Below are positions 12,378 through 41,506 of a stretch of DNA of 64,000 bases, one piece after another. How positions within the stretch are numbered: the stretch's first letter is position 1; every line of letters begins with the position of its first letter. The stretch is taken from the NCBI GenBank assembly GCA_964524915.1, contig CAZGEB010000002.1:5094-69093 (forward strand), in the 5' to 3' direction. The notes below the pieces were generated by a model. The model saw only the letters and a list, made by a program, of their open reading frames with translations. It had not been told where the DNA came from and made no database searches. Both the position numbers and the translations under genes were made by a program. Source of the DNA: an uncultured Candidatus Saccharibacteria bacterium (GTDB lineage Bacteria; Patescibacteriota; Doudnabacteria; UBA920).

Positions 12378-12387
12378 TCCTTATCAC

Positions 12388-19725: not shown

Positions 19726-19736
19726 AGCTCAACCTT

Positions 19737-19762: not shown

Positions 19763-19766
19763 ATAA

Positions 19767-20132: not shown

Positions 20133-20154
20133 AAATTATTCCGCCGCATGCCTT

Positions 20155-20180
20155 TACCTATAAGGTATAAGGTATCCCGC
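20155..20180. repeat. right inverted repeat flanking the four-helix-bundle gene ((GGTATAA)n-like)
   Basis: acctataaggtataaggtatcccgc, in inverted orientation relative to 19737-19762. Confidence 0.5.
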
Positions 20181-20189
20181 TAAAAGACC

Positions 20190-20528: not shown

Positions 20529-20579
20529 AAATAATCTACTATTGCATTAATAATATATTAGCCATACGCGCTCAAACTT

Positions 20580-20870: not shown

Positions 20871-21283
20871 CTGCTAACGGTGTTTAAAAACTCTCTCATA
20901 TACGGCATCAAGTTTGGCAACTGCAATATTTCTTGAGCGGTTAAGAATTTAAGCTCGGAATGCTCTTCTCCAGTCTGAACGTCCTTAGGATCTCCAGTAA
21001 TTCTTACATCATAAATTATGAAATGTACTGGAGTAGTATCTAAATGACCATGAAATTCAAAAGCCTGCTGACTTTCTGCAACCTCCAAACCAGTTTCTTC
21101 CCACACTTCTCTTTTTAACCCATCCTCTTTAGTCTCTAACGCCTTTTTCCACTTACCTCCCGCGAAATCCCAAAGCCCATGAAAGGCCTTGGAATTCCGC
21201 AAGAGCACTAAATACGTATCACCTGAACGTATCACGGCCTTCAACGCAACAATACCTTCTTTTTTTTCTAGTTCAGGAGTCAT
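20867..21283 (-). CDS. NUDIX hydrolase
   Basis: Nudix box GGKWKKALETKEDGLKREVWEETGL. Confidence 0.8.
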   Translation of the reverse strand: MTPELEKKEGIVALKAVIRSGDTYLVLLRNSKAFHGLWDFAGGKWKKALETKEDGLKREVWEETGLEVAESQQAFEFHGHLDTTPVHFIIYDVRITGDPKDVQTGEEHSELKFLTAQEILQLPNLMPYMREFLNTVSS

Positions 21284-21289
21284 GACTAT

Positions 21290-23176: not shown

Positions 23177-23222
23177 ATATTTTTCTCCTTGTTATTTAGA
23201 ATAATGAAGTAAGTATAAAGAA

Positions 23223-23606
23223 TTAAGAATAAAAACTTTTTGACTTTTTAATTAAACCATTAATTATTTTATGTAACTCCACTAATGTACTGCTTATATA
23301 ATTGTAATCCGTTTTAGTAATAAATCCTAAATCCCTAGAAATCATAAATTGATTTTGGACTTCGGTAACAGACCCCAAGCTGATCGCATAGAATCTCGCC
23401 TTGTCTGCATAAGTACTCCTACTAAACCCCTCCGCAATATTGGATGTTATGGAAACCGATGCCCTGCGCAACTGATTGGTCAAACCAAACATTTCGGCTT
23501 TTGGAAAAGAATTAGTTAAACGATAAACCTCCAAGACTAACTCATGACCTTTTTTCCAAGCAAGTAAATCAGTAAAATTATGAATCTTGGCTTTTTCTTC
23601 ATTCAT
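23223..23606 (-). CDS. four-helix-bundle protein (TIGR02436 family), second copy
   Basis: LLAWKKGHELVLEVYRLTNSFPKAEMFGLTNQLRRASVSITSNIAEG. Confidence 0.8.
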   Translation of the reverse strand: MNEEKAKIHNFTDLLAWKKGHELVLEVYRLTNSFPKAEMFGLTNQLRRASVSITSNIAEGFSRSTYADKARFYAISLGSVTEVQNQFMISRDLGFITKTDYNYISSTLVELHKIINGLIKKSKSFYS

Positions 23607-23643
23607 AGGGCTTTACTCTTTACTCTTACTTCTTTAATCTTGC

Positions 23644-24177
23644 TTATTTCTTCTTCCCAATCCCTACCCCACTTGGTCTGACTACTTTGCCGCCGATCAT
23701 GTAGCCAGGCACATATTCCTCCACCACCACACCATCTTCCCCGCCCTCTATTTCTTTAATAGCTTCATGGAAATTTGGATCAAACTTTTTTCCCAAAGCT
23801 TCAACTCTTTGCACTCCCAACTCTTCCAGTGCCTTATCCAACTGCTTGATTAATCCTGCAATACCATTTTTCCAGTCACTGTATTTCTCCACAAATTCTT
23901 TATTCTTTATTCTTAATTCTTCATTCTCCTCTGGCATATGCCTGAGCGCTTGCCCTAAAGAATCCAAGGAAGGCAAAAGTTTTGCCACTGCCACTTCCCT
24001 TGCAAAGTCCACCAACTCTTTACTTTTCTTTTCTTGCCCTGCTTGAAAATTTAGTAGGTCCGCCTGCGCCCGCTTCCAACCATTTAGATTTGCTTCGGCT
24101 TCCGACTTGGCCTCATCCAGTTGTTGGATTAAAGTCTTTTCTTCTTGATCGTTAGTTGTGTAATTATCATCGCTCAT
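23644..24177 (-). CDS. grpE: nucleotide exchange factor GrpE
   Basis: GWKRAQADLLNFQ..and the C-terminal beta-domain GYMIGGKVVRP. Contains an in-frame (TTATTCT)4 repeat at 23891-23918. Confidence 0.9.
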   Translation of the reverse strand: MSDDNYTTNDQEEKTLIQQLDEAKSEAEANLNGWKRAQADLLNFQAGQEKKSKELVDFAREVAVAKLLPSLDSLGQALRHMPEENEELRIKNKEFVEKYSDWKNGIAGLIKQLDKALEELGVQRVEALGKKFDPNFHEAIKEIEGGEDGVVVEEYVPGYMIGGKVVRPSGVGIGKKK

Positions 24178-24319
24178 AAATTCGAAATTCTAATATCGTA
24201 ATCCGAAACAAATTCAAAGCCATAAAATATAAAATAAGAATGCAAAGTTTTAAATTTTTAAATTCGAATTTTAATATTGTTTCGAATTTAGTGCTTCGTA
24301 ATTCGATTTTCTTTATTAC

Positions 24320-25087
24320 TTAAATATTTACGTGATTAAATATCTCCAAGAACACTACAACCACTGCTCCACCACCTCCAAGTAATTTTGTAATGTATTC
24401 CAAAATTCCCATGTTCTTTTGGTACTTCATAGATTTGGGGCCCAGAAGTCCTACCACCCCGCGCTTACCATCCGGGAGGCTTACACCCGACACCACCATA
24501 GAGTAATCACTTTTGCCAATCTGAATTTCCTGCCCTATTACAGCCTTGGGTGTCTGGTCACCATAATCTGCAATAATCTGCTCTGCATAGCTGTCTATAT
24601 TGTCAAAAAATTCTGCAATCTCTCTAGCGTCTTCTTTGGGAAGACCAGGATTATTTAAAATATTTGAAAGACCAACAGTAGAAGTTTCTCCAGGAAGAAG
24701 TGTAAAGCTTGCTTGATCGCTTGCTTCTGCCAAAAGCTTGGCTAGTCTTCTGCCCACTTCTACATTGATAGTTTGAAGTTTCAACACTTCTCTTTTTAAT
24801 TTATCCTGCTCTTTTATAGAAAGCTGCACTCGCTCCATGAGCTGGGAAACAAAATAACGAAAACCCATATCCGTCGGCACTCTCCCACTAGAGGTATGCG
24901 GCTGATGGATAAAGCCCAACTTTTCCAAAGCCTGCATCTCATTTCTCAAAGTCGCAGCAGACACATCAAAATACCCTTTTTCAATCAAATCCTGACTTGC
25001 CACCGGGCTTCCGGTGTCGCAATTTTCCTTCACTATAGCCGCCAAAACCTGTGCTTGACGGGGGGTAATTTGTGGATAATCTGACAT
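24320..25087 (-). CDS. hrcA: heat-inducible transcription repressor HrcA
   Basis: Winged-helix N-terminus ITPRQAQVLAAIVKENCDTGSPVASQDL..ATLRNEMQALEKLGFI. Confidence 0.9.
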   Translation of the reverse strand: MSDYPQITPRQAQVLAAIVKENCDTGSPVASQDLIEKGYFDVSAATLRNEMQALEKLGFIHQPHTSSGRVPTDMGFRYFVSQLMERVQLSIKEQDKLKREVLKLQTINVEVGRRLAKLLAEASDQASFTLLPGETSTVGLSNILNNPGLPKEDAREIAEFFDNIDSYAEQIIADYGDQTPKAVIGQEIQIGKSDYSMVVSGVSLPDGKRGVVGLLGPKSMKYQKNMGILEYITKLLGGGGAVVVVFLEIFNHVNI

Positions 25088-27639: not shown

Positions 27640-28536
27640 TTATAACGAATCTCGAATTTTCTTTAAGATTTTTACATCCTCTTTCACTCTATCATGATCA
27701 GTTTCCAAAATCAATGGAAAAGTAATGTCATTCTTACTCTTTGAGAGAAGACTGTCAAGAGCTTTCAAAAAGGCCATTATTCCAGCCTTTCCAAGCTTCC
27801 CTTGCCCTATATGTTCATGCCTATCTTTGTGACTACCTAGCTCCACTTTACTGTCATTTACGTGCGACATGCGTAGAAACTTCAGTCCAATAATTTTATC
27901 AAACTGTTTCAAAACTTCGAGCGCTGATTTTTCTGTACGCAAATCATAACCGCTACCAAAAGCATGCTGAGTATCAAAACAAATTCCCCCAAAACCTTTT
28001 TTGCCAACTAGCGGCTTCATCAAATCTCTAACTTCTTCAAAAGTATCGCCCAAGACAGCTCCCGCACCTGCAGAAATTTCTATAAGCAACTCTGTAGTGC
28101 CTTTGTAATTTTTCAAAACTTCCACCAAACCTTTTTGTGCTTGCGCAAATCCTTTTTCTTCATTGTCTTTTAAACTTCCCGGATGGAACATGACAAACTT
28201 TGCACCCAGCAATGTGCCACGCTCCAATTCATCTCGCACTATAGCAATAGAAGATTTATAAGTAGCGGGCTTTGGTGAACCAAAGTTGATGTAATAAGGC
28301 GCATGAATAACAAAGCACGCCCCCTCTCCTTTTGAGGAGAGGGATGGGGAGAGGTTGTATTTCCCAGTCTCCCCTCTAAACTGTTCCAAAACTTCTTTGG
28401 TCAATTTCGGAGCTGGACCTCCCTGAGGTGAACGAGAAAATATTTGAAAAGTCTCGCAGCCCAAAGCCGCCGCCATTTTCGGCGCATTAAATACTCCTCC
28501 CGCAATACTCACATGACAACCTATTTGAAATTTCAT
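27640..28536 (-). CDS. nfo: endonuclease IV (AP endonuclease, Nfo)
   Basis: MKFQIGCHVSIAGG..HAPYYINFGSP..LIEISAGAG..FDTQHAFGSGYDL..HVNDSK. Carries an in-frame GC-rich palindromic insertion (28321-28385) encoding GETGKYNLSPSLSSKGEGA. Confidence 0.85.
   Translation of the reverse strand: MKFQIGCHVSIAGGVFNAPKMAAALGCETFQIFSRSPQGGPAPKLTKEVLEQFRGETGKYNLSPSLSSKGEGACFVIHAPYYINFGSPKPATYKSSIAIVRDELERGTLLGAKFVMFHPGSLKDNEEKGFAQAQKGLVEVLKNYKGTTELLIEISAGAGAVLGDTFEEVRDLMKPLVGKKGFGGICFDTQHAFGSGYDLRTEKSALEVLKQFDKIIGLKFLRMSHVNDSKVELGSHKDRHEHIGQGKLGKAGIMAFLKALDSLLSKSKNDITFPLILETDHDRVKEDVKILKKIRDSL
28321..28385. repeat. GC-rich palindromic element (CCCCTCTCC-TTTTG-AGGAGAGGG-AT-GGGGAGAGG...CTCCCCTCT) inside nfo
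   Basis: Inverted G/C arms in an AT-rich gene; the reading frame is maintained. Confidence 0.6.
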
Positions 28537-28988
28537 AATTTTTCCTTTACCCCCTCCCCTTTCTGCGAGTTCGCCGAAGCTTTAGCGTAGGAGAATGAGG
28601 GGAGGGTTGGGGAGGGGTTGGTTACTACTTGTTTAATAACCTCCAGCACTCCTTCTAAATTTTTATCAATCTCATTATTCCAAAAATGTAAAACAATGTA
28701 GCCTTGCGATTCCAAAAATTCTTGTTTCTGATTATCTGTAAATTTACCACTGGCCTCATTATGTTGACTACCATCCAACTCAATAGCCAACTTTTTGGCT
28801 CGACAAGAAAAATCAACAATCACAGCACCGATTTGTACTTGGCGCTTAAATTGTAAGCCTAAAAAACGATGGGCTCGCAGACGTGACCACAGCTTCGCCT
28901 CCCAAGGAGTTTGAGACTTACGAAGTTGTCGGGAATAAGACAAATAAGGCTCATGAACAAGTCGTTTTGGCATACTTTCATTATACAA
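28533..28988 (-). CDS. DUF559 endonuclease-domain protein (Vsr/restriction-endonuclease-like fold)
   Basis: LRK..T..E..LW..LR...GLQFKRQVQIGAVIVDFSC...LAIELDGSQH...VLHFWNNEI. Its C-terminal ~25 aa are encoded by the GC-rich element at 28549-28625. Confidence 0.6.
   Translation of the reverse strand: MYNESMPKRLVHEPYLSYSRQLRKSQTPWEAKLWSRLRAHRFLGLQFKRQVQIGAVIVDFSCRAKKLAIELDGSQHNEASGKFTDNQKQEFLESQGYIVLHFWNNEIDKNLEGVLEVIKQVVTNPSPTLPSFSYAKASANSQKGEGVKEKL
28549..28625. repeat. GC-rich palindromic element with long loop (CCCCTCCCC...GAGGGGAGGG-TT-GGGGAGGGG)
   Basis: The loop contains cgccgaagctttagcgtagg, which recurs between the two tRNA-Lys genes (10770-10790). Confidence 0.6.
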
Positions 28989-30292: not shown

Positions 30293-30550
30293 TTATTTAT
30301 TTTTTAAAAAAGCAAGCAGATCAATCATAAGTTGACTAAACTCCTCCTCAAACCACAACTCCCAGAAGTGATCAGTACTGCTCTTTTCAAGCCGGGCAAT
30401 CCCACTTTCTAGCTTTTGTCTTGCCGCCATAACCGAAGCCGTATTGGGAGATACCACATGATTACACCTAAACTGTTCCAAAGCCCGCCTGGCACTGTCT
30501 AAATCGTCTAAATATCTACGCAACAAAGATTGTTCTGGTGAGTTAGACAT
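30293..30550 (-). CDS. hypothetical protein
   Basis: 85-aa ORF with no motif, part of a run of small minus-strand ORFs. Confidence 0.3.
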   Translation of the reverse strand: MSNSPEQSLLRRYLDDLDSARRALEQFRCNHVVSPNTASVMAARQKLESGIARLEKSSTDHFWELWFEEEFSQLMIDLLAFLKNK

Positions 30551-30582
30551 AAATCATCTTATTATTCAAAAAGTGCAATACT

Positions 30583-30885
30583 CTACCTCCATAAGCACAT
30601 ATATCTTTCGATATCTTTTTTAAAAATTAGTTCTAAGTGTGCCAGCCTAGCATCCGCAGTAGCCACAGATGAAAAATAATATTCATGATTCATAGTGGTG
30701 TGTATTCTAAGATCTCTATGGGCTACTTGCATATCATCAGCCATTTGCCAAAGTTCTGCACCATGCTTATCTCGTAACTCAGGAATACCCCACAAATATT
30801 TCGCTCGTTCCTTTATTGCAAGAGCCAGCTCCGTATAATAATTTATCTCCCTTTGGTATATTTCCTCTTCCGTCACTTGACTCAT
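30583..30885 (-). CDS. hypothetical protein
   Basis: 100-aa ORF with no motif. Confidence 0.3.
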   Translation of the reverse strand: MSQVTEEEIYQREINYYTELALAIKERAKYLWGIPELRDKHGAELWQMADDMQVAHRDLRIHTTMNHEYYFSSVATADARLAHLELIFKKDIERYMCLWR

Positions 30886-31212
30886 TTTACGCTCCTTATA
30901 AAAATCAAAGTCATTAATTCTGAAAATAAAACTTACCGCGGCCTTTGAGTCAATTACTCAAAATATTTATTGACCAAATTCATATAACAAAACAATGCTT
31001 CGCTTGCGGTGCTTAGACAAGCTCTCTTGCCGTATCATAGCATTTATATAGTCTATAAATCTAGCAGCTTCTGACCAAAAAATCTCATCATTTTTTCCTT
31101 GCCATTTTAAAGCCCCAGAAAACTCACCACCAAAGTTTGTCAGCTGTAAACATAACAGTATTCCTAAAAATCTTTGCTCATATATTTAACTTACCAAAAT
31201 AGCACCCTCTTT

Positions 31213-31286
31213 TTGTCATCCCGAGCGAGGTTTTACGAGCCGAGGGATCCCTCCATTCCGCAAAGCCTCCAGTCGGGATGACACAA
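31213..31286. mobile_element. MITE-like element with TTGTCATCCCGAG / TCGGGATGACACAA terminal inverted repeats
   Basis: 11-12-bp terminal inverted repeats about 48 bp apart, immediately 3' of the GIY-YIG nuclease gene. Same terminal inverted-repeat family as 38361-38462 and 40540-40644. Confidence 0.5.
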
Positions 31287-31295
31287 GAGGAATAG

Positions 31296-31595
31296 TTACC
31301 ACTCTAGACTTAAATCTTTCCAACTAGGATTCATTTGTTTTATTAAAAATTCTTTTTTCTCCCTACGCCAACCCTTCAGTTGTTTTTCTCTGATAATGGC
31401 TGATTCAATATTTTCAGTCTCTTCAAAGAAAATCAATTTATGACAATTGTATCTTTTAGTAAATCCTTCTAGTAAATTATTTTTATGCTCGTACACTCTT
31501 CTGACTAAATCATTTGTCACACCAACATACAAAGTCCCGCTCGTACTTGCCATAATATAAACATAATAAAATCTATTTTGCATAATGCAAACCAT
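31296..31595 (-). CDS. GIY-YIG nuclease-domain protein (UPF0213-like)
   Basis: FYYVYIMASTSGTLYVGVTNDLVRRVYEHK...EKQLKGWRREKK. Confidence 0.75.
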   Translation of the reverse strand: MVCIMQNRFYYVYIMASTSGTLYVGVTNDLVRRVYEHKNNLLEGFTKRYNCHKLIFFEETENIESAIIREKQLKGWRREKKEFLIKQMNPSWKDLSLEW

Positions 31596-31626
31596 GCAAC
31601 TTCTTTACCAAAACAATCTCAAAATT

Positions 31627-31977
31627 CATAGCTGTCTCTTAATTTGTATGCGGTGCTTTTTAATATAAGCACTTATATCTGTGACATTCTGAAATTCTTC
31701 AAAAAATACTTCGCAATGTGCAGCCTCTGTACTATAAGCAATTGCATCTATATTTTCCCCCTTATGATACGGCTCTAATTTTTCAATCTTACCATACACA
31801 ATAGCATTCCTTAACTAATCTTGTGGATCTGTCGACCAAGTACTCGCAAGCAACGAAGCCAACTTATTCTGCAAAGCTTCCGCCTCACGCATAAGAGGTG
31901 TGGCATTTCTGCGCTCAAACTGCCGTACCGGTTCTGTAACTCTTACAATAAAATTATCTAATTTACTAAATAAATTC
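31627..31977 (-). pseudogene. disrupted gene: ~116-codon reading frame interrupted by an in-frame TAG at 31813-31815
   Basis: MNLFSKLDNFIVRVTEPVRQ...STDPQD-TAG-LRNAIVYGKIEKLEPYHKGENIDAIAYST...IKRQL. All other genes in the window use standard stops. Confidence 0.35.
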
Positions 31978-32022
31978 ATAAGAATACAATTTTAGTTCTC
32001 AAAAGCATATTGCAAACCTACA

Positions 32023-32316
32023 CTACATACAACCACCCAACAGTTTTACGCACTCCGCTTTTGCCTTAGCATAAAGACTTTCAAAGTCAGGAGAAATACT
32101 AGGTCGGTCCAACATTTCAAGACACTGTGAAAATGCCACCACTACTTGATTATAAGCCTCAAAATCAAATACTGACCCACCCTGAGACAAAGCAAACCTC
32201 AAAACCCTCTCCCACTGTTTAACCTCTGCCACCAATGCAACCCTATCTCTCTCGCGACCAACCGCAGCAGCAGCTAGATTACCACCCTGCAAATACCTCC
32301 AATTTATTTCTGACAT
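32023..32316 (-). CDS. hypothetical protein
   Basis: 97-aa ORF directly upstream of glyQS. No motif. Confidence 0.3.
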   Translation of the reverse strand: MSEINWRYLQGGNLAAAAVGRERDRVALVAEVKQWERVLRFALSQGGSVFDFEAYNQVVVAFSQCLEMLDRPSISPDFESLYAKAKAECVKLLGGCM

Positions 32317-33741
32317 CTATATTTTCTCTCCTAAGTAAGCTGGTAAATCTTTTACAGAAATGCGAACCTGTTCTTGTGTGTCACGGTCGCGTACGGTTAC
32401 AGTATCATCCTCCAAAGTTTGGAAATCTACGGTAATGCAAAAAGGTGTACCAATTTCATCTTGTGAATAATACCTCTTGCCTACATTGCCACGGTCATCC
32501 CAAGCTATGGGTAGGAGTTGCGAGTTGCGAGTTGCGAGTTGCGAGTAAATACTGCGGGCTTTTTCTACCAGCTCGGGTTTGTTTTTTAGCAGTGGAAACA
32601 CTGCACATTTATAAGGAGCTAATTTTGGTGGTAGCGCAAGCCACACTCGTTTTACTTGCGCGTTGTCGTCTAGATCTTCTCTGTAAAACTCAAAAAGAGT
32701 AGATAAAAACAAACGGTTAAAACCCAAAGAAGACTCCACTATATATGGATTAAACCTCTCGCCTGTTGCCTCGTCAAAATAAGTCAAATCTTGACCGGAA
32801 AATTTGGAGTGTTGATCCAGGTCGTAGCTGCCACGATTGTGCAGCCCTTCTATTTCCTTAAATCCCATTTCGGAAAACTCGTACTCTATATCCCATGCAT
32901 CCCTAGCGTAAAAAGCTCTCTCATCCTCTTCGTGTTGACGCCACCTGACACGCTCTTTACTAAATCCCAGAAAATCCACATAAAAATTTTTACGATATTC
33001 TTTCCACTCTTCATAATGTTTGTCTGCGTCCACGGGCGCACAAAAATACTGCACGTCCATTTGTTCAAATTCCCGAGTTCTAAAAAGAAAATTCTTTACT
33101 GTAATTTCATTACGAAAAGCCTTGCCTATTTGGGCAATACCAAAAGGGAGTTTCCTACGAGTAGTATTTTGCACCGACCTCCAGTCCACATAAATATTTT
33201 GGCAACTTTCCCCCTTCAAATAAACAAGGTTACTTGCTTCTTCTGTAGGGCCTAAAAATGTCTTTACTAATAAATTAAACTTTTTGGCAGCGGATAATGC
33301 ATTACCATCTGGACTTTTCAGTCCTTTTGACTGGATGAGGTCACTAGCTTGTTCCGCGGTCAAGGACCCTGCATTTTCCATTAAACCTGCCTCTTCTATC
33401 AAATGATCTGCTCTGTATCTTTTGTGCGTCACCAGATCTTCTACAAGTAAATCAGCAAAACCACCTACGTGACCACTGGCCTCCCAAACTCTTGGGTGCA
33501 TAAAAATCGCACCCTCAATTTCCACCACATCTTCCCGCTTTTGCGTATTCCAATATCTCCAAGCATGTTCTAAATTTTTCTTGAGCAAAAACCCCAAAGG
33601 ACCAAAGTCGTAGGTAGCAGCAAAACCCCCATAAATTTCTGAAGAGGGAAATACAAACCCACGACGCTTACAGAGCGCCACTATTTTTTCCATCTTTCCC
33701 TCCGAAGCCTTGGCAGAGGATAGTAAATTTTCTTGTTGCAT
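32317..33741 (-). CDS. glyQS: glycine--tRNA ligase (dimeric GlyQS type)
   Basis: MEKIVALCKRRGFVFPSSEIYGGFAATYDFGPLG and class II motifs. Carries an in-frame (GAGTTGC)4 repeat at 32515-32545. Confidence 0.9.
   Translation of the reverse strand: MQQENLLSSAKASEGKMEKIVALCKRRGFVFPSSEIYGGFAATYDFGPLGFLLKKNLEHAWRYWNTQKREDVVEIEGAIFMHPRVWEASGHVGGFADLLVEDLVTHKRYRADHLIEEAGLMENAGSLTAEQASDLIQSKGLKSPDGNALSAAKKFNLLVKTFLGPTEEASNLVYLKGESCQNIYVDWRSVQNTTRRKLPFGIAQIGKAFRNEITVKNFLFRTREFEQMDVQYFCAPVDADKHYEEWKEYRKNFYVDFLGFSKERVRWRQHEEDERAFYARDAWDIEYEFSEMGFKEIEGLHNRGSYDLDQHSKFSGQDLTYFDEATGERFNPYIVESSLGFNRLFLSTLFEFYREDLDDNAQVKRVWLALPPKLAPYKCAVFPLLKNKPELVEKARSIYSQLATRNSQLLPIAWDDRGNVGKRYYSQDEIGTPFCITVDFQTLEDDTVTVRDRDTQEQVRISVKDLPAYLGEKI
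32515..32545. repeat. heptanucleotide tandem repeat (AGTTGCG/GAGTTGC)x4 in frame inside glyQS
   Basis: gagttgcgagttgcgagttgcgagttgcgag encodes SQLATRNSQL on the minus strand. Identical tract in tgt (34660-34691). Confidence 0.9.
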
Positions 33742-33750
33742 ATAAATAAC

Positions 33751-33888
33751 TTATTTGCGCAATTTTTTAAGAATAATCTGTCCGATTTCTCGATGCTTGG
33801 GACAAGTATCCTGATGAGTTTCTGAAGAAGTAGCACCACAACTGCAAATAACTTTTTCTGTCTCCTGATTCACTTCTGTGTTTGACAT
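33751..33888 (-). CDS. hypothetical 45-aa Cys-containing peptide
   Basis: MSNTEVNQETEKVICSCGATSSETHQDTCPKHREIGQIILKKLRK. Below the ORF-track cutoff; found by manual translation. Possible Zn-ribbon (C..C...C..H). Confidence 0.25.
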   Translation of the reverse strand: MSNTEVNQETEKVICSCGATSSETHQDTCPKHREIGQIILKKLRK

Positions 33889-34111
33889 ATTTCAGCTTAT
33901 TAAAAATAATAATAAAACAAAAAACTCATCACTAAATATTAGTTTAACACTAAATACTTAGGGACGAGTTTTGAAAAAATAAACCCGCGGTTCCACCCTA
34001 CTTCCCCGCCGATAGCGGGACCACTTTATTAAAATTTATAGCTCCAGCCTGCCACAGCCTTCATAGCTACCATAAGTATATGACAACGACCCCCATGTGT
34101 CAAAAACGAAT

Positions 34112-34384
34112 TTATTTTTTATAATACCTAGGAATCTCGCCACCACCATACTGTTCAGAAGAATTTTCATTATCATCTGGCCATGGTTGAAGCCCTCGAC
34201 GCTCTATTCTTCTAGCAATTTCTTCCGCACTTAAACCACATATAGATTTGTTGTGTTGTGAATGATGAGGCTCGTTAAACACAATCCCAGCTGGACGAGG
34301 AGACAGTCTTAGCTGTTTTGGATCAAAAAAAACCGTCACAGAAAAAATCATGCCGCACTTTTTACACTGTTTTATATCTCTCAT
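34112..34384 (-). CDS. hypothetical small protein
   Basis: MRDIKQCKKCGMIF... 90-aa ORF immediately downstream of tgt. Confidence 0.3.
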   Translation of the reverse strand: MRDIKQCKKCGMIFSVTVFFDPKQLRLSPRPAGIVFNEPHHSQHNKSICGLSAEEIARRIERRGLQPWPDDNENSSEQYGGGEIPRYYKK

Positions 34385-35556
34385 GACTTAATTTCCCTAA
34401 AATCTTCCACCATCTTATCAAAATAATCAAACTCTATTGCTAGCCTGATTTTGCCCATGAGGTTTAGATAAAATCTGAGGTTGTGCATGGTGGCAAGGCG
34501 TAAAGCTAAAGGCTCTCCTGTGGCAAAAAGATGCCTGAGATAAGCTCTGGTGTGATTTAAACAAGCATAGCAATTACAATTTGGATCAATGGGCGTAAAA
34601 TCCTCCGCATACTTCTGTACACGAATATCTATGGTCTCGTAGCCCTCCCCGATTTCTAGTTGCGAGTTGCGAGTTGCGAGTTGCGAGGAAATATATAGTC
34701 TGCCGTGACGCGCTTCTCTACTTGGAATCACACAGTCAAAAGTATCACACCCTCTAGCAACTGCTTGCACTATATCAAAGGGGGTACCCACACCAAGCAA
34801 ATGTTTTGGTGAATTTTCTGGTAAATGTGGGACAGCAGACTCTACCGCGATCATCATTTCATCGTGACCTTCCCCTACTGCCACTCCACCGATAGCAAAA
34901 CCCTCAAACCCCAAAGCCACCATGTCTTCAGCTGATTTCTTTCTTAAATCTGGGAAAGATGCGCCTTGTACAATCCCCCAAAGTTTTTGTCCGCGGTTTA
35001 CCGGGTCACCATCCAAAACTATTCTTTGATGCTCCTTTACAGCCCTCTCTGCCCATCTTTTTGTCAGCTCTATAGACTGTTTTGATCTTTCATACTCAAA
35101 AGGAAAGCCTGGAAAATCATCTAGAATCAAAGCCACATCTGATCCTAAATTTGCTTGAATCTGCACAGACTTTTCTGGAGACAACATTTCTTCTCTACCG
35201 TCTAGGTCAAATTGAAAAAACACTCCGGCTTCTGTCACTTTTCGCATTTTTGCCAAAGAAAAAACTTGAAAGCCGCCACTGTCAGTAAAAATCGGCCCTT
35301 GCCAATTCATAAACTGGTGGAGTCCTCCGGCTTTATAAACAAGTCCATCCCCAGGGCGTTGCCACAAATGATAGGTGTTGGCAAGGATCATTTCTGCCCC
35401 CCAAAATTTCAGCTCTTCACTCGTGACACTTTTTACTGTGCCGCGCGTGCCAATAGGCAAAAAGATCGGCGTATGAACCTGACCGTGATGCGTATTTATA
35501 ATTCCAAGCCTTGCTTTTGACTTAGAATCTTTTTTTAAAATTTCAAAATATGGCAT
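34381..35556 (-). CDS. tgt: queuine tRNA-ribosyltransferase
   Basis: LPIGTRGTVKSV..., zinc site CNCYACLNH. Carries an in-frame (AGTTGCG)4 repeat at 34660-34691. Confidence 0.9.
   Translation of the reverse strand: MPYFEILKKDSKSKARLGIINTHHGQVHTPIFLPIGTRGTVKSVTSEELKFWGAEMILANTYHLWQRPGDGLVYKAGGLHQFMNWQGPIFTDSGGFQVFSLAKMRKVTEAGVFFQFDLDGREEMLSPEKSVQIQANLGSDVALILDDFPGFPFEYERSKQSIELTKRWAERAVKEHQRIVLDGDPVNRGQKLWGIVQGASFPDLRKKSAEDMVALGFEGFAIGGVAVGEGHDEMMIAVESAVPHLPENSPKHLLGVGTPFDIVQAVARGCDTFDCVIPSREARHGRLYISSQLATRNSQLEIGEGYETIDIRVQKYAEDFTPIDPNCNCYACLNHTRAYLRHLFATGEPLALRLATMHNLRFYLNLMGKIRLAIEFDYFDKMVEDFREIKS
34660..34691. repeat. heptanucleotide tandem repeat (AGTTGCG)x4 in frame inside tgt
   Basis: agttgcgagttgcgagttgcgagttgcgag encodes SQLATRNSQL, the same peptide as in glyQS. 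Confidence 0.9.
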
Positions 35557-35565
35557 TGCGTGTCT

Positions 35566-35817
35566 TTACTTACAATTTTTCGCTATCCATTCTTTAGAAA
35601 AAGCAATTCTTGCGTTAATGTCTTCCTTTGGGATTTTGGCATTGTGCATAGCCAAGATTAGCCCCGTCATGTGATCAATACTTAACTCTTTAATACCCAA
35701 CGCAGCAAAATTAACTTCAATAGTGCCGGCACGAAAACCACCACTTGCCACTCGGGACAATGGTGATTTTCTAAATTCTCCACTTGATAGTTCAAAATTC
35801 ATCAGACAAAAAATCAC
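35566..35817 (-). CDS. hypothetical protein
   Basis: 83-aa ORF between tgt and pnp. Confidence 0.3.
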   Translation of the reverse strand: MIFCLMNFELSSGEFRKSPLSRVASGGFRAGTIEVNFAALGIKELSIDHMTGLILAMHNAKIPKEDINARIAFSKEWIAKNCK

Positions 35818-36110
35818 TTAGTTACTGGTTTGGGCGTATAAAATATATCAACCTTAGCCTTACTCAAGTCCACCTCTTCTACAAATTCAAATTCATGTAG
35901 CCTAACATATTTCAAAACTCTTTTTTTCGGCACTCTTCTAACAGGCCCCACCTCAACCTCATAATCTTCTGAAGGTAAATCTAAACTCAAACGAGCAGAC
36001 ACCTCAATCGATTCGTCTGGCAAATCGGCTGGCCTGACCTCCATTTCAGCATGTAACCACTGCATATTTTCCAATTTACCACCATCTAATATTCTTTTTA
36101 TTACGCCCAT
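35814..36110 (-). CDS. hypothetical protein
   Basis: ORF trimmed to the internal ATG at 36110 to avoid overlap with the pnp stop. No motif. Confidence 0.3.
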   Translation of the reverse strand: MGVIKRILDGGKLENMQWLHAEMEVRPADLPDESIEVSARLSLDLPSEDYEVEVGPVRRVPKKRVLKYVRLHEFEFVEEVDLSKAKVDIFYTPKPVTK

Positions 36111-36117
36111 ATAAAAA

Positions 36118-38340
36118 TTAATTATCTCTTTGTCCGTTTCCACCATGTGGTTTCCAATCAAAACCTCTTTGACCGCGGTCGTGAGGAGGGCCTTGGCGTT
36201 CTGGTGCTGGCTTTGCAAAAGGTCTGTGAGTTAAATTGATACGGCCTTGACTATCTATTTCTTGTACTTTCACTTTCAAAGTGTCGCCAATATTTACTAC
36301 ATCCTCTACACGATTTACTCTGTAATTTGCAAGCTCAGAAATATGTACCATACCATCTTGACCTGGAATCAATTCCACAAAAGCACCAAAGTTCATTATG
36401 CGTACTACTTTACCTTCAAATTCTTCACCTACTTGAATTTGGCGAGTGAGATCTTTGATCCACTTCACAGCTTTTGCATTTCCATCTTCATTGACTGAGC
36501 AAACCATTACAAGACCTGAGTCTTCTATGTCTATCTTCACACCAGTTTCAGCAATGATTTGGTTAATCACTTTGCCTCCGGGACCTATCACATCGCGAAT
36601 CTTGTCTACTGGTATATAGAAGCTGACAATGCGTGGCGCATAAGGAGACATTTCAGGGCGAGGCGCTGGCAAGGCTTCTTTCATTTTTTGAATAATGTAA
36701 AGTCTACCAGGCTTTGCTTGCTCCAGAGCTTTTGCAAGTATTTCTACTGTAAGTCCTTTGACTTTGATATCTAGCTGCAAAGCCGACACGCCTTCTTCTG
36801 AGCCTGTGACCTTGAAATCCATGTGACCATTAAAGTCTTCTATACCAGCGATATCAGTCAAAACTTTGTAATTTGAAGGATTACTTTCATCCATTACCAG
36901 ACCCATCGCCACACCACCAATAACTTTTGAAATAGGCACACCAGCGTCCATTAGCGCCAAAGAAGACCCACAAGTACTTGCCATGGAAGTGGAACCATTA
37001 CTGGCTATAGCTTCACTCACCAATCTCATGGTATAAGGGAAATCTTTTTGAGCAGGCAAAACCCCAGACGCATCCAAAGCTTTTTCAGCCAAAGCCCCGT
37101 GTCCAATTTCACGACGGCCAGGACCCCTTAGAGGTGACACTTCACCAACTGAGTAACCAGGCATGTTGTAGTGATGAATATAGCGCTTGTTTGTGCCCTC
37201 AGCTGGATCCTCTATACCATCTAGCAGCTGCTCATCGCCTTTGCTACCCAAGGTCACAACTGTCAAAACCTGAGTTTCACCGCGAGTAAATAAAGCTGAC
37301 CCATGAGTACGAGGCAAGATCCCAACTTCGCAGGAAATTTTGCGAGTCTCGTCTAGTCTTCTACCGTCTACTCTACGATCATTTTCTAATATTTGCTTTT
37401 GCTGATACTTTTTTAATATATAATCTGCGCAAAAAGTCACCTCTTTGGCAATTTTTTCTTGCTTGATAATTTCAGGTTTATCCGCAAACTCAACTGAAAT
37501 GATTTCTTCAATTTCTTTTAAGACAGCATTTATTCTCTCTTCTCTTTCAGCTTTTTCTTTCACATACACAGCAGCTTCAATTTTTTCTTCTGTCAAAAGC
37601 TCTTTTGTCCTGGCCATTATACTTTCATTTGGCAAAACAAAAGCAGCGGCAGCTTTTTCTTTGCCAATTTCGGTTCGCCACTGATTCTGCATCTCCACTA
37701 ATTCACCCAAAAACTTTTGAGCAAATTTTACACCCTCTACAATATCCACTTCACTCACCAATTCAGCACCCATCTCCACCATCAAGATGTGCTCTCCGGT
37801 ACCAGAGACCACTAAATCCATAGAAGATTTTTCTCGCTGTTCATGAGTTGGATTGACTACATATTGACCATTAATTTTTCCAACCCTCACAGCTGCCACA
37901 GGACCATCAAAAGGAATGTCAGAAATAGTCAAAGCAGTGGAAGCTGCTACCACAGCCAGCATATCTGGATCATTCTGCATGTCTACTGACAACACTGTAA
38001 CTACTACCTGCACATCATTGCGCATGCCGTAAGGAAAAAGTGGACGAAGTGTGCGATCGATCACACGCCCCGACAAAATAGCGTCATCGGTTGCCCGACC
38101 TTCACGCTTGACCCATCTACTACCCTTGATTTTGCCAGCAGCGTAAAGACGCTCTTCGTAATCCACCAAAAGTGGAAAATAATCTAAATCCCGAGGCTTG
38201 TCTGTCATTACACAAGTCGCCAAAACTACTGTATCTCCCAAACGAGCCAAAACTGCACTATTGGCCTGTAAAGCCATGCGTCCAGTTTCAAAACTCATTT
38301 TTTCTGTACCAATAATTCTTTCTATCGTTTGCACTGCCAT
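36118..38340 (-). CDS. pnp: polyribonucleotide nucleotidyltransferase (PNPase)
   Basis: Two RNase PH domains plus KH and S1 domains, with a Gly/Arg-rich tail. Start set at MAVQTIERIIG (38340). The 76 codons upstream in the ORF track lie over MITE-like repeats and are unlikely to be coding. Confidence 0.93.
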   Translation of the reverse strand: MAVQTIERIIGTEKMSFETGRMALQANSAVLARLGDTVVLATCVMTDKPRDLDYFPLLVDYEERLYAAGKIKGSRWVKREGRATDDAILSGRVIDRTLRPLFPYGMRNDVQVVVTVLSVDMQNDPDMLAVVAASTALTISDIPFDGPVAAVRVGKINGQYVVNPTHEQREKSSMDLVVSGTGEHILMVEMGAELVSEVDIVEGVKFAQKFLGELVEMQNQWRTEIGKEKAAAAFVLPNESIMARTKELLTEEKIEAAVYVKEKAEREERINAVLKEIEEIISVEFADKPEIIKQEKIAKEVTFCADYILKKYQQKQILENDRRVDGRRLDETRKISCEVGILPRTHGSALFTRGETQVLTVVTLGSKGDEQLLDGIEDPAEGTNKRYIHHYNMPGYSVGEVSPLRGPGRREIGHGALAEKALDASGVLPAQKDFPYTMRLVSEAIASNGSTSMASTCGSSLALMDAGVPISKVIGGVAMGLVMDESNPSNYKVLTDIAGIEDFNGHMDFKVTGSEEGVSALQLDIKVKGLTVEILAKALEQAKPGRLYIIQKMKEALPAPRPEMSPYAPRIVSFYIPVDKIRDVIGPGGKVINQIIAETGVKIDIEDSGLVMVCSVNEDGNAKAVKWIKDLTRQIQVGEEFEGKVVRIMNFGAFVELIPGQDGMVHISELANYRVNRVEDVVNIGDTLKVKVQEIDSQGRINLTHRPFAKPAPERQGPPHDRGQRGFDWKPHGGNGQRDN

Positions 38341-38360
38341 ATTTTTACCTTTCTTATGGT

Positions 38361-38462
38361 TTGTCATCCCAGAATTTTCTGCTTTGAGAAAATATCTGGG
38401 ACCCAGATTGGATTCCGGATCGCACTCGCCTCCGCCAGCCGGCGGACTCGTTTGTCCGGAAT
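38361..38462. mobile_element. MITE-like element (TTGTCATCCCAG...CCGGAATGACAT) in the pnp leader, containing the CTCCGCCAGCCGGCGGACTC hairpin
   Basis: Terminal inverted repeats related to the 31213 and 40540 elements. Core 38424-38443 is identical to topA 7679-7698. Confidence 0.5.
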
Positions 38463-38502
38463 GACATACCCACATGCAGTGACTTGCAAGCTCACAAAGA
38501 CA

Positions 38503-38527
38503 TTGTCTTGTCATCCCCGAGTAGTCG
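38503..38527. repeat. collapsed MITE-like hairpin TTGTCATCCCCGAG-TAG-TCGGGGAT
   Basis: Same terminal motif with arms directly abutting. Confidence 0.45.
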
Positions 38528-38587
38528 GGGATCTTTTCTTGCTTAATGAAATATGAAAATTTCCACACTCATACTTCTTAAGTAGAG

Positions 38588-38612
38588 ATTCCCGTCTTCA
38601 CGGGAATGACAT
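38588..38612. repeat. collapsed MITE-like hairpin ATTCCCG-TCTTCA-CGGGAATGACAT
   Basis: Right terminal inverted repeat CGGGAATGACAT paired with a short left arm. Confidence 0.45.
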
Positions 38613-38672
38613 GCAATAAATCTTCGTACAGTCTGCAAACCACTACAGTTAATTAATTTTTAAATAAGCTTT

Positions 38673-38957
38673 TTATCTTATAACGCCTTCATCAAACCTT
38701 TTAATAATACTTTCAAGCTTCGCAATCACATTCCTCATAACATCCTTACTTGTTGGATTAGCACCTCTTCCCAAATTTTGATTCAATTCTACAACATACT
38801 TCTTATGCAAATTAAAGGCTCTAGCGGCTCTTGAATCATTTGGCAATACCCCTTGATAAAATTCTTTTATACGAGACTCCAAAGTATCAACCAAACCATT
38901 TAAATCATTGAGAAGTTGGTCATATGTCGCCCCCCCTTCTTGTTTTTCTCCTGGCAT
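38673..38957 (-). CDS. hypothetical protein (contains a G7/C7 homopolymer near the N-terminus)
   Basis: 94-aa ORF between rpsO and pnp. C7 run at 38930-38936 encodes EGGA. Confidence 0.4.
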   Translation of the reverse strand: MPGEKQEGGATYDQLLNDLNGLVDTLESRIKEFYQGVLPNDSRAARAFNLHKKYVVELNQNLGRGANPTSKDVMRNVIAKLESIIKRFDEGVIR

Positions 38958-39022
38958 AAAATTAAGTTGGGTTACTTATTTTAATCAAATAGGGGTGTAG
39001 ACTTCCACACCCCACAAAAAAA

Positions 39023-39358
39023 TTATTCAGAAACCACTACTTCACCACTTGCCACTTGAGCCGCATCTTGCTGGGCTTGACTTGCTTTGAGCAAATTTTG
39101 AAGTCCAAGTTTCTTTGCAATCTTCATTGCTCTTTCCAAACTTTCATCTTCCAAAAATCTAAAAAGTCTCCTGCGGTTACCCACCATCTTCAAAAGACCT
39201 CTTCTGGAGTGGTTGTCTTTTTTGTGCACTTTCAAATGTTCACTTACGAGACGAATTTCTTCGGTCAAGATAGCGATCTGTACCTCAGGACTACCAGTGT
39301 CTTCTCTGTGAATTCTAAATTTGCGAATAATCGCATCTTTGTCTTTTTTATCAAGCAT
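39023..39358 (-). CDS. rpsO: 30S ribosomal protein S15 with a C-terminal extension
   Basis: [28 protein letters not shown] is the S15 signature; about 20 extra C-terminal residues. Confidence 0.9.
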
Positions 39359-39538
39359 AAATATTCCTTTCGCATCAACAATTATTAAATAAATGTGATG
39401 CGTTCTCTACGGCTTTCACCCTAGAGAACTGTACGAACTGAGCTGCTTAAAGTCCCAGCCGTAGATTAATTAATTCTATATATACTATACTATATATAGG
39501 GTGGTTTATGCAAATGCATATTTTGCCCAAAATACCCC

Positions 39539-40522
39539 ATGAATTCCAAGAATCAAATAGAGCAATATATCCAAGATTTCCTAGAATATTGCGAAATTGA
39601 GAAAAATCGCAGCCCCAAAACTTTGGTGGCTTATGCTCATTATTTAAAAAGATTTGCTGATTTCACCAAAAGCAAAAACATCTCATCTCCGGACAAAATA
39701 GACCTAGAAGCCGTCAGGCAATTTCGCCTACATTTAAACAGGCTCAGTGACGACAAAGGCAAAAACCTCAAACTGATCAGTCAATCTTATCACATCATAG
39801 CTCTTCGGGCTTTCTTGAAATATTTATCCAAACGAGATGTGACCACCCTTGCCGCAGAAAAAATCGAACTGCCAAAAAATCCCTCACGCGAAGTCACCGC
39901 TCTTTCAGACGATGAGCTCCACAGAATTTTAGCCGCAGTAAACGACAACGAAGACCAAATGCAGCAACTCCGAGACCGCGCCATCCTACTCACCCTCTTC
40001 TCTTCTGGGGTGCGTATTTCTGAATTGGTTTCCCTCACCCAAAAAATGGTAAGCCTAGACAGGGGCGAATTTACTGTCCGTGGAAAAGGCGATAAACTCC
40101 GACTAGTTTTTTTGTCTACAGAAGCTACCGCTGCTATAAAAAATTATTTAAGCAAAAGAAAAGACAACCACCCTGCCCTTTTTATAGCTCACGGTAAATC
40201 TAAAAATGAATTAGAAAGAGAAATCTCCGCCCAATCCTCTGATCTATCAGGTATAAGGTATAAGGTATCAGCTACCGGCCTCACCGCAAGGTCAATCCAG
40301 AGACTCATCCACAAATACGCCATGCTTGCTGGAGTTTACAAAAAAGTCACCCCCCACACCCTCCGACACTCTTTTGCAACCGATCTTTTACGTAATGGCG
40401 CAGATATTCGCTCTGTACAAACCATGCTTGGCCACGCCTCAATCACCACTACGCAAATCTACACTCATGTAACCAATGAATCTTTGCGTGAAGTACACAA
40501 AAAATTTCACGGAAAAAATTAG
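39539..40522 (+). CDS. tyrosine recombinase XerC/XerD family
   Basis: R..HTLRHSFATDLL..GHASITTTQIYTHV (catalytic RHRY). Contains an in-frame (GGTATAA)n repeat at 40251-40270. Confidence 0.85.
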   Translation: MNSKNQIEQYIQDFLEYCEIEKNRSPKTLVAYAHYLKRFADFTKSKNISSPDKIDLEAVRQFRLHLNRLSDDKGKNLKLISQSYHIIALRAFLKYLSKRDVTTLAAEKIELPKNPSREVTALSDDELHRILAAVNDNEDQMQQLRDRAILLTLFSSGVRISELVSLTQKMVSLDRGEFTVRGKGDKLRLVFLSTEATAAIKNYLSKRKDNHPALFIAHGKSKNELEREISAQSSDLSGIRYKVSATGLTARSIQRLIHKYAMLAGVYKKVTPHTLRHSFATDLLRNGADIRSVQTMLGHASITTTQIYTHVTNESLREVHKKFHGKN

Positions 40523-40539
40523 CAACAACGCTTGCCTAG

Positions 40540-40644
40540 TTTGTCATTGCGAGGAGCGAAACTTTGTGAGCAACGAAGCAATCCAGACTGAGGACACCCT
40601 AGATTGCTTCGTCTCCGCCTAGGCGGACTTCTCGCAATGACAAG
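40540..40644. mobile_element. MITE-like element with perfect 14-bp terminal inverted repeats (CTTGTCATTGCGAG ... CTCGCAATGACAAG)
   Basis: Internal inverted repeat CGAAGCAATC/GATTGCTTCG and a CTCCGCCTAGGCGGACTTCTCGC hairpin related to the topA/pnp-leader hairpin. Lies 18 bp after the xerC stop. Confidence 0.55.
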
Positions 40645-40673
40645 AATAAATGTTTAGTATGAAATTCTATCAA

Positions 40674-41270
40674 TCATTTCAATCTTTTAAATTTTGTTCT
40701 TACCACATGCCAAATTCCAGGACTTATAGACAGTAGTATTATCAACACAACTCCAGGAATAATATATTTCTCAATATTTGGCACTGTACTTCCAAGCCAA
40801 AACCCAAGCAGCGTCAAACCAACTGACCAAAGCAAGGCCCCCACAACAGAATACAAAATAAATTTAGCAAACGGCATTCTTGCCACCCCAGACACCACTG
40901 GACTAAAAGTCCGAACCACTGGCACAAATCTCGCAATCACCACAGCCTTACCACCATGTTTTTCAAAAAAATCATGACTGCGTTTTAAGTGCTCTGGATT
41001 GAAAAGCCTAGACTTTGGCCGAGAAAAAAGTTTTGGTCCAGCATGCTTGCCGATCTGATAGCCTACATTGTCCCCCAAAAGTGTAGCCAAAAACAAAACC
41101 AAGCATAACCAAAAAATATTCAAGAAACCCTGTCCAGACAAAATCCCAGCAGTAAAAAGTAGGCTGTCCCCGGGCAAGAAAAACCCCACCAGAAGACCTG
41201 TTTCCGCAAAAACTATTCCAAAAAGCCCCGCATATCCGGCTGTCCTAATAATCGTCTCTAAATTAAACAT
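40674..41270 (-). CDS. DedA-family membrane protein
   Basis: VFAETGLLVGFFLPGDSLLFTAGIL is the DedA signature. Start trimmed to the internal ATG at 41270; the upstream 17 codons lie in a hairpin-rich leader. Confidence 0.75.
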   Translation of the reverse strand: MFNLETIIRTAGYAGLFGIVFAETGLLVGFFLPGDSLLFTAGILSGQGFLNIFWLCLVLFLATLLGDNVGYQIGKHAGPKLFSRPKSRLFNPEHLKRSHDFFEKHGGKAVVIARFVPVVRTFSPVVSGVARMPFAKFILYSVVGALLWSVGLTLLGFWLGSTVPNIEKYIIPGVVLIILLSISPGIWHVVRTKFKRLK

Positions 41271-41429
41271 AAATAAAATAGCACTGAGTAATGAGAAGTG
41301 AGCAGTGAGATTGCAGCCCAAGACTCATTCCTCAAGTCTCACTTCTCACGGCTTTTTATAAATTTGCCACACACCCCACTTTTCTAGTATACTATAAAAA
41401 GAATTTTTAAATAAATTCATAAATACTCT

Positions 41430-41506
41430 GGTCCCGTAGCTCAGTTGGATAGAGCGCAAGCTTGCGGAGCTTGAGGTCGCAGGTTCGACCCCTGCCGGGA
41501 TCACCA
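41430..41506 (+). tRNA. tRNA-Arg (anticodon GCG), CCA encoded
   Basis: GGTCCCGTAGCTCAGTTGGATAGAGCGCAAGC-TTGCGGA-GCTTGAGGTCGCAGGTTCGACCCCTGCCGGGATCACCA with full cloverleaf. G34 instead of the usual A34/I34. Confidence 0.8.

Follow-up and report, generated by a model that had tools for sequence, protein, structure and literature searches.

The 64-kb stretch of DNA analysed here (the window: positions 5,094 to 69,093 of contig CAZGEB010000002.1, from an uncultured Candidatus Saccharibacteria bacterium) carries short inverted repeats, designated doublets A, B and C, which genuinely belong to a small family of hairpin repeats, one that flanks a tiny gene for a GIY-YIG nuclease in many bacterial phyla. 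We regard it as probable that the doublets are gene-less derivatives of an element of about 390 bp encoding a GIY-YIG nuclease with an SLX1-like fold, comparable to MITEs (miniature inverted-repeat transposable elements) and to paired repetitive extragenic palindromic (REP) sequences, the REP doublets forming hairpins (REPINs). This reading draws on features observed directly: the architecture of the repeats, a conserved terminal tag, covariation within the hairpins, the association of gene and repeat unit, the boundaries of the element, the agreement of hairpin class with protein clade, and turnover among close strains.

Repeat copies in the window

Four doublets (A, B, C and D-E) and one tentative unit (F) were found in the window, every one of them intergenic, and the only GIY-YIG gene copy of the window lies directly beside doublet A. 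Their coordinates are as follows.

31214-31283, no strand assigned: doublet A, left unit 31214-31249 (+) and right unit 31246-31283 (-), the two overlapping at a central GGGATCCC
31296-31583, minus strand: stand-alone GIY-YIG nuclease gene, 95 aa from an ATG at 31583, matching PF01541 with E 1.2e-15
38362-38466, no strand assigned: doublet B, left unit 38362-38402 (+) and right unit 38411-38466 (-)
38509-38611, no strand assigned: doublet D-E, unit D 38509-38533 (+) and unit E 38587-38611 (-), with a 53-nt spacer
40542-40642, no strand assigned: doublet C, left unit 40542-40583 (+) and right unit 40602-40642 (-)
about 60675-60716, minus strand: unit F, a tentative degenerate single unit, GGATCCCGGATATTTTT...AAAAATATCCGGGATGA

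The inverted arms of doublet A (31211-31224 and 31273-31286) are 14 nt long and 93% complementary, those of doublet B (38358-38373 and 38455-38470) are 16 nt long and 81% complementary, and those of doublet C (40541-40556 and 40628-40643) are 16 nt long and 94% complementary. The terminal motif TGTCATYSCGAS occurs exactly four times in the window and not once in 100 shuffles, and doublets A, B and C fold better than shuffled sequence on either strand, with z values of -5 to -8. By these arms, folds and motif counts, the three repeat copies that an earlier note on this DNA had proposed are real and lie where it placed them, with several corrections of detail: doublet B ends at 38466 according to its arms and right unit, not at 38462; the perfect part of the terminal repeats of doublet C, TTGTCATTGCGAG, measures 13 nt instead of 14; and the hairpin CTCCGCC-N4-6-GGCGGACT, described as common to all copies, is present in B and C and missing from A. 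The family also extends beyond the three loci first recognised, since the window holds four to five.

Doublet D-E, the fourth, consists of two short units and was found by a strict scan together with a covariance model, R1, which was trained on 65 canonical 24-nt units drawn from the 80 GIY-YIG loci introduced below. Units D (TGTCATCCCCGAGTAGTCGGGGATC) and E each have a perfect 8-bp stem, and R1 matches them with E values of 2.5e-4 and 2.4e-3, respectively; in doublet A the left unit is matched with E 2.4e-5 and the right unit with E 0.15. Unit F matches weakly (10.8 bits, E 1.3); it has the 3' flank of class I hairpins, ATCCAGTG, and a decayed tag, with ATGAAA for the expected ATGACA, and it is counted as a member only tentatively. 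R1 was built only from units of other phyla; it finds D, E and the left unit of A, and more weakly C, B, F and the right unit of A.

Alignment of the long copies showed that their ends are conserved and their interiors unrelated, and that each copy is made of two inverted smaller units. No genes were identified inside the doublets, which at 70-105 bp with arms of 14-16 nt are small and non-coding with terminal inverted repeats, as MITEs are. Doublet A ends about 10 nt after the stop codon of the GIY-YIG gene (31296-31298, minus strand) and doublet C starts 18-19 nt after the stop codon of xerC (40522), in agreement with the gene positions given in the earlier note. Doublet B lies 21 nt upstream of the start codon of pnp (38340), and doublet C is placed between the convergent genes xerC (39539-40522, plus strand) and a VTT-domain gene (40674-41321, minus strand).

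Anatomy of the tagged hairpin unit

The building block of the family is a unit of 24-45 nt, canonically 24 nt, which begins with an invariant (T)GTC tag, continues into a hairpin whose stem opens with A-T and T-A pairs, and closes with a C. Among 44 hairpins picked by an internal motif alone, GTC precedes 43, AT opens 42 and C trails all 44. Two classes can be distinguished: class I hairpins have a perfect 8-bp stem followed by CCAG, and class II hairpins have 5 bp, tandem G.A mismatches, two G-C pairs and a triloop, in which GCGAAGC is frequent, a sequence that we take to be an unusually stable DNA mini-hairpin. In the alignment of 65 units, the outer five pairs co-vary by construction, and the inner stem pair, which lay outside the selection criteria, is GC in 45 units, AU in 19 and GU in one, and is unpaired in none; at two further positions the bases form tandem G.A/A.G or else Watson-Crick pairs. 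The units have a G+C content of 52-57%, compared with 30% for the GIY-YIG open reading frame (ORF) and about 40-41% for the window, and no T-run was found after the stems. Gene-less neighbouring units alternate in orientation with gaps of 16-32 nt, and '+-' neighbours have a median gap of 16 nt, so that palindromic units with a terminal tag stand in inverted doublets as in REPINs.

Two further patterns were noted in the arrangement of units. In several loci (L013, L017, L020, L038, L083, L133/L135 at 6223-6287 and L170 at 3784-3800) the outer half of the unit, about 13 nt (TGTCATYCCGAGC), is repeated two to four times just outside a complete unit without its 3' arm, with a period of 20-21 nt and in some cases 26 nt. 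Nested insertion was considered as the source and rejected, because no corresponding stack of 3' halves is found on the other side; these half-units might be the footprint of repeated cutting and repair, or of slippage. In addition, long arrays of doublets occur in L025 (2535-3690, period about 118 nt) and L015 (2844-3493).

Units beside GIY-YIG genes across phyla

To place the window in context, 80 loci of GIY-YIG relatives were taken from one-genome-per-species contigs, with hosts in Clostridia, Saccharibacteria, Chitinophagaceae (Bacteroidota), Alpha-, Beta-, Gamma- and Deltaproteobacteria, Cyanobacteria, Chloroflexota, Acidobacteriota, Nitrospirota, Omnitrophota, Bifidobacterium and several Patescibacteria. 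In an R1 scan, a forward unit was found within 150 nt upstream of the GIY-YIG gene in 53 of 78 loci and a reverse unit within 150 nt downstream in 58 of 77, with units on both sides in 45 loci. The background more than 300 nt away from the gene is 0.12 units per kb over both strands, and the enrichment beside GIY-YIG genes across phyla is about 80-fold. The nearest upstream unit is in plus orientation in 49 loci and in minus orientation in 12, and the nearest downstream unit is in minus orientation in 55 and in plus orientation in 9; where the two nearest units lie on either side of the gene, 41 of the 58 pairs point inward, at a median gap of 310 nt. In most loci the layout is TGTCAT and a hairpin shortly before the start codon, and a hairpin and ATGACA right after the stop codon, at median distances of about 24 nt from the start codon and about 17 nt from the stop codon. 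The ORF of 15 loci continues across the reverse unit and has the TGA of ATGACA as its stop codon. A different layout was seen in L025, where the GIY-YIG gene lies between doublets with the units facing away from it, and the window gene is similar on its downstream side.

Because the training units of R1 come from these 80 loci, the association was also checked independently. A strict scan for perfect stems found units upstream in 46 loci and downstream in 34, where roughly 1% was expected, and about 6 of 13 relatives from viral contigs, which were outside the training of the model, have units bordering the gene. Another view of the same association comes from family proteins that are over-long in databases, as the extension is a translated unit in 15 of 25. 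The GIY-YIG protein subclade also tracks the hairpin class irrespective of host: for 41 of 43 elements the nearest neighbour by protein has a hairpin of the same class, in unrelated hosts (permutation p < 0.0005).

The complete gene-bearing element

The complete element consists of one unit at each end, inverted with respect to each other (TGTCAT...ATGACA), with a single gene for a protein of 85-100 aa that comprises only a GIY-YIG domain. Complete elements are 343-515 bp long, with a median of 387 bp (n=44). Gene-bearing elements with the same ends as the doublets occur in 44-45 of the 80 loci, and the encoded protein is a GIY-YIG nuclease with a predicted role in transposition. A T precedes GTCAT in 39 of 44 elements and an A follows ATGAC in 41 of 44, and these bases may be part of the inverted repeat.

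The boundaries of the element were revealed by L058 and L061, a pair of copies from a single assembled genome, which align over 363 bp with 81% identity from CTGTCAT to ATGACA and have unrelated flanks. Their ORFs have a dN/dS of 0.05 and a dS of about 2.1, and their terminal units of about 28 nt are near-identical; the near-identity of the ends despite saturated synonymous sites indicates either selection on them or their homogenisation. Genomes with two or more diverged copies are also represented by L032 and L084. Among 43 complete elements, direct repeats of 1-6 nt were found only at chance level, and no target-site duplication was detected. In L067, complementarity continues for 14 nt beyond TGTCAT/ATGACA (CCAAACACCCCCCT / AGGGGGGTGTTTGG), and in doublet A pairing runs on outward of the units for 6 nt (CCTCTT / AAGAGG, within 31205-31292); such pairing past the element ends hints at insertion into the centre of a pre-existing palindrome.

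The proposal of the earlier note that the repeats form a non-autonomous inverted-repeat family with the adjacent GIY-YIG protein as a plausible trans-acting partner is supported, in that units frame GIY-YIG genes across phyla and in the viral set, the paralogues L058 and L061 define the ends TGTCAT/ATGACA, and the protein clade follows the hairpin class. Its description of the copies as typical MITEs does not hold, given that target-site duplications are lacking and that the building block is a tagged hairpin of 24-45 nt arranged in inverted pairs and alternating arrays.

Turnover among close strains

Four strains with 91-96% DNA identity to the window were found through cluster members of the XerC and VTT proteins of the window. 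Doublet C is present in L171, L172 and L173 and absent from L170, where an unrelated 69-nt spacer takes its place; at site B, L170 has a C-type doublet, with TGC/GCA stems, instead of a B-type one. Units D and E are found in all strains compared, and the window differs from L171 in compensatory base-pair changes, of which D has three and E two, with otherwise conserved flanks. In L005, an extra class I doublet without counterpart in the window lies in a variable segment between grpE and dnaK. L005 also retains the GIY-YIG gene together with an identical doublet A, from which the flank diverges at the first base after the element, and the nearby small ORFs differ. The copies are thus dispersed, and strains differ in insertion at site B, site C and the grpE-dnaK segment, as would be the case for MITEs. 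The earlier note held that its proposal would fall if no more copies and no polymorphic sites existed among relatives; both further copies and strain differences were found. Units are patchy among related Patescibacteria.

The GIY-YIG protein

The window protein has an SLX1/HIGLE-like fold in one compact domain, and the residues that are invariant in the family alignment are intact; a mechanical ORF call extends the gene to 31296-31595, corresponding to 99 aa. By length, sequence and fold it belongs with the stand-alone proteins of about 90-110 aa of the UPF0213/YhbQ-like/SLX1-like class (COG2827), resembling 1ZG2, 1YWL and SLX1. It shares a GIY-YIG catalytic domain with conserved catalytic residues with homing endonucleases; the linker and DNA-binding domain of the I-TevI/Seg type are absent from the 95-aa protein (TIGR01453, 18 bits against a cut-off of 56). 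No Y1 transposase domain was found in the flanked gene, which matches PF01541 and is not a REP-associated tyrosine transposase (RAYT).

A profile search, with clusters at 50% identity, put the family at 25,099 clusters at E <= 0.001 and 9,851 at E <= 1e-10. The closest genome relatives of the window protein belong to other phyla, with 66-70% identity; the neighbouring polynucleotide phosphorylase (PNPase) is about 70% identical to proteins of Candidatus Doudnabacteria/Patescibacteria, which makes a genome of Patescibacteria (candidate phyla radiation) very likely as the source, and its named relatives are all Patescibacteria. This difference indicates horizontal movement of the GIY-YIG gene. 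A set of 2.9 million viral contigs yielded no more than 13 relatives; an origin in a defence system or phage was considered and set aside, as there were no PADLOC or PHROG matches and the gene is rare in viral contigs.

Proposed mechanism and alternative explanations

We infer the cleavage site, the form of DNA recognised and the chemistry of insertion, and with them the mobilisation of the units by the GIY-YIG nuclease, along the following lines. The nuclease would recognise the tag and hairpin, either extruded as a cruciform or as single-stranded DNA, and would cut at or near the junction of tag and stem at both ends; host repair or ligation, acting on the breaks, would then copy or relocate the segment, a route that would leave no target-site duplication. 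The proposal of structure-specific cleavage takes as its basis the cutting of branched and stem-loop DNA by SLX1, as given in PDB entry titles. Doublets A, B, C and D-E are element ends without a gene and would therefore depend on a nuclease supplied in trans.

Several points weigh against this reading. That the nuclease cuts or moves the units is a prediction from sequence. GIY-YIG enzymes are hydrolytic nucleases, and we know of none that performs strand transfer, so that integration would have to rely on host functions. No target-site duplication was seen at A, B, C or D-E, and no clean empty site was recovered, as the flanks of L170, which lacks C, are not alignable and the insertion point is unreadable. 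In a minority of loci, the window included, the gene lies outside the doublet: the window gene has a forward unit after its stop codon and no unit upstream, where a remnant forward unit was looked for and none convincing was found. The nearest flanking unit is oppositely oriented in 12 loci upstream and in 9 downstream. Units D and E are class I-like, the window nuclease falls in a class II clade, and any partner of D and E would lie outside the window. Finally, R1 scans the very loci that supplied its training units, for which the strict scan and the viral set serve as the independent checks.

The main rival to a mobile element with gene-less derivatives, which we consider unlikely, is that a homing-type selfish GIY-YIG gene invades pre-existing REP-like doublets, with the hairpins as its target and not its cargo; a gene-less doublet would be cut and then converted by repair from a gene-bearing copy, and the repeats would spread by other means. 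Repair-based homing would leave no target-site duplication, would explain why the gene mostly sits between two units of a doublet, and fits the covariation of clade and hairpin class equally well, as target specificity. It is harder to reconcile with a catalytic-only protein of 95 aa, which has no counterpart of the DNA-binding domain that gives known GIY-YIG homing enzymes their specificity, and with flanking homology of only about 25-40 bp per side; it also leaves the dispersal and strain turnover of gene-less doublets unexplained, and the closeness of start and stop codons to the units suggests a co-evolved compact element.

It seems more doubtful still that the units and the nuclease form a domesticated partnership, like that of REPINs and RAYTs, in which the hairpins serve the host in mRNA stability, termination or DNA topology and the GIY-YIG protein is a vertically kept caretaker acting at a low rate. 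The single gene copy in 64 kb would suit such a role, as would the exclusively intergenic units, several of them in untranslated regions (the leader of pnp and the space separating convergent genes), the compensatory changes that preserve hairpins between strains, and the alternating orientation of array units, which is like that of REPs in bacterial interspersed mosaic elements (BIMEs). Against vertical maintenance stand the relatives of the nuclease in unrelated phyla, where PNPase tracks Patescibacteria, the genomes with two or more diverged copies (L058/L061, L032, L084) and the patchiness of units in related Patescibacteria. That the repeats are ordinary terminators or regulatory RNA stems, alike and adjacent to GIY-YIG genes by coincidence, is highly improbable and already contradicted: GC-rich stems in the intergenic DNA of a genome with 40% G+C would be compatible with it, and no Rfam family speaks against it, but the fourfold exact terminal motif where none was expected, the GTC tag and trailing C of nearly every hairpin, the stems without a T-run, the 80-fold enrichment beside GIY-YIG genes across phyla and the recovery of window units by a model from other phyla all contradict it.

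Comparison with known systems

The system lacks a defining feature of each of its two closest parallels, as there is no RAYT, which REPINs have, and no target-site duplication, which MITEs have; in its logic it resembles REPIN-RAYT pairs, and in its form it resembles pairs of an insertion sequence (IS) and its MITEs. Like REPs and REPINs with their RAYTs (Bertels and Rainey 2011, PMC3116915; Di Nocera et al. 2013, PMC3733652), the units are short imperfect palindromes with a terminal tag, they form extragenic inverted doublets and alternating arrays, the partner gene is flanked by repeats, and the hairpin type co-varies with the partner protein. The described REP tags are GTAG and CGTC (PMC3733652), whereas the tag here is (T)GTC followed by AT, and a RAYT is an HUH/Y1 transposase, whereas the partner here is a 95-aa hydrolytic nuclease of the GIY-YIG type. 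Unlike RAYTs, this partner apparently moves horizontally, is sometimes present in multiple copies, and spans many phyla including Patescibacteria.

With bacterial MITEs derived from IS elements (Correia/NEMIS and the families in PMC11602168) the doublets share their small size, lack of coding capacity, terminal inverted repeats and dispersal in intergenic DNA, as well as a larger coding relative with the same ends and presence or absence that differs between strains. In contrast to these MITEs, no target-site duplication was found, the coding relative has no recognised transposase, and the termini are autonomous hairpin units that also occur singly. IS200/IS605 elements are alike in lacking target-site duplications and in being very small, and recognition here would likewise use subterminal hairpins and not long duplex repeats; however, their ends are not inverted repeats and their enzyme is an HUH/Y1 transposase that works on one strand, whereas the ends here are symmetrical and the GIY-YIG protein is about half the size. 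The catalytic fold is shared with SLX1 and UPF0213 proteins (YhbQ-like, COG2827) and with free-standing homing enzymes (I-TevI, Seg), but SLX1 is a repair enzyme that needs SLX4, in contrast to the stand-alone protein of 95 aa, and GIY-YIG homing enzymes have DNA-binding domains and reside in introns or phage genomes, neither of which applies here.

Database and literature searches did not reveal a described counterpart. In Rfam, only tRNAs reached the gathering score in the window, and nothing relevant was matched at E <= 5 across 31000-41000. The terminal sequences, searched as text in the literature, returned only unrelated PCR primers, and neither the survey of REPs (PMC3733652) nor that of MITEs (PMC11602168) contains the GTCAT motif. 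The searchable literature holds no account of an association between GIY-YIG proteins and hairpin repeats, in a comparison that left aside the small dispersed repeats of cyanobacteria, and reports no GIY-YIG protein of the single-domain or homing type with cognate hairpin repeats at its borders. A compact mobile GIY-YIG element with gene-less copies, to which the repeats point, is not described in that literature, and the chance that its gene-bearing form represents a new class of mobile element is substantial.

Neighbouring genes and annotation artefacts

The adjacency of doublet C to a recombinase gene, which the earlier note had pointed out, appears to be coincidental. A metagenome scan with XerC gave relatives of at most 65% identity; across 80 of their loci units are scarce, and in no case does one follow the xerC stop codon, and xerC was therefore rejected as a partner.

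The frame upstream of pnp (36118-38340), 38341-38568 on the minus strand, stays open across doublet B and unit D. Starting at a GTG at 38568, the mechanical PNPase ORF is 816 aa long, the database protein P0134 has 798 aa and relatives have about 750 aa; the repeats have probably given rise to the N-terminal extension as an artefact of annotation. Many annotated GIY-YIG proteins (P0258, P0262, P0327, P0333, P0382 and others) are likewise 30-70 aa too long, their extensions being translated hairpin units that yield peptides such as ILRFAQDD, CHPE..KDL, VILSAAKNL, SFPRKRES, LCHCEA and FRMT. In practical terms, the units give rise to systematic annotation errors, in which ORFs are stretched through them into spurious peptides.

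Small genes of the region also vary between strains. A gene for a 146-aa DUF559/MTES_1575 endonuclease-like protein (28533-28973, minus strand) adjoins an M16 peptidase gene, and the corresponding segment in L005 is not homologous and has an 89-aa gene in its place; the endonuclease-like gene is thus the second small nuclease gene to differ from strain to strain. The GIY-YIG gene is surrounded by small ORFs (54-100 aa, no Pfam match) in the window (30293-32316) and in L005 (447-1400), and the gene sets differ. Upstream of a class II aminoacyl-tRNA synthetase gene (32317-33741), the segment 33957-34073 on the minus strand gives a sub-threshold match to a T-box leader (36 bits, where the gathering score is 93; E 3e-5) and may represent a T-box that is divergent or reduced. 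At 41430-41506, beside a tRNA-Arg(TCT), the window encodes a tRNA-Arg with anticodon GCG; CGN codons in bacteria are usually decoded by an ACG (inosine) tRNA, and the tRNA-Arg(GCG) may point to an unusual decoding set-up in this lineage.

Implications

Beyond the derivation of the doublets from a gene-bearing element, it is conceivable, if somewhat short of probable, that the gene-bearing form is an unrecognised class of prokaryotic transposable element of about 360-400 bp, whose sole protein is a 95-aa GIY-YIG nuclease acting on tagged terminal hairpins, and that the window doublets are its non-autonomous progeny, the GIY-YIG counterpart of REPINs. It would be, to our knowledge, the smallest autonomous transposable element known in prokaryotes. 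The known classes of transposase are DDE, DEDD, HUH, serine, tyrosine and Cas1; if this proposal is true, GIY-YIG would be added to them as an enzyme class, with a family of about 10,000-25,000 clusters at 50% identity.

If the link between nuclease and units is functional, the uncharacterised small single-domain GIY-YIG proteins, which are among the largest such families in bacteria, would gain a role as partners of tagged hairpins, and a nuclease of about 95 aa with a tagged hairpin of 24 nt would offer a minimal model for structure-specific DNA recognition and possibly a compact tool. It would also mean that a second, mechanistically different system of repeat plus enzyme exists beyond the RAYTs, and that it reaches Patescibacteria as well as many other phyla.

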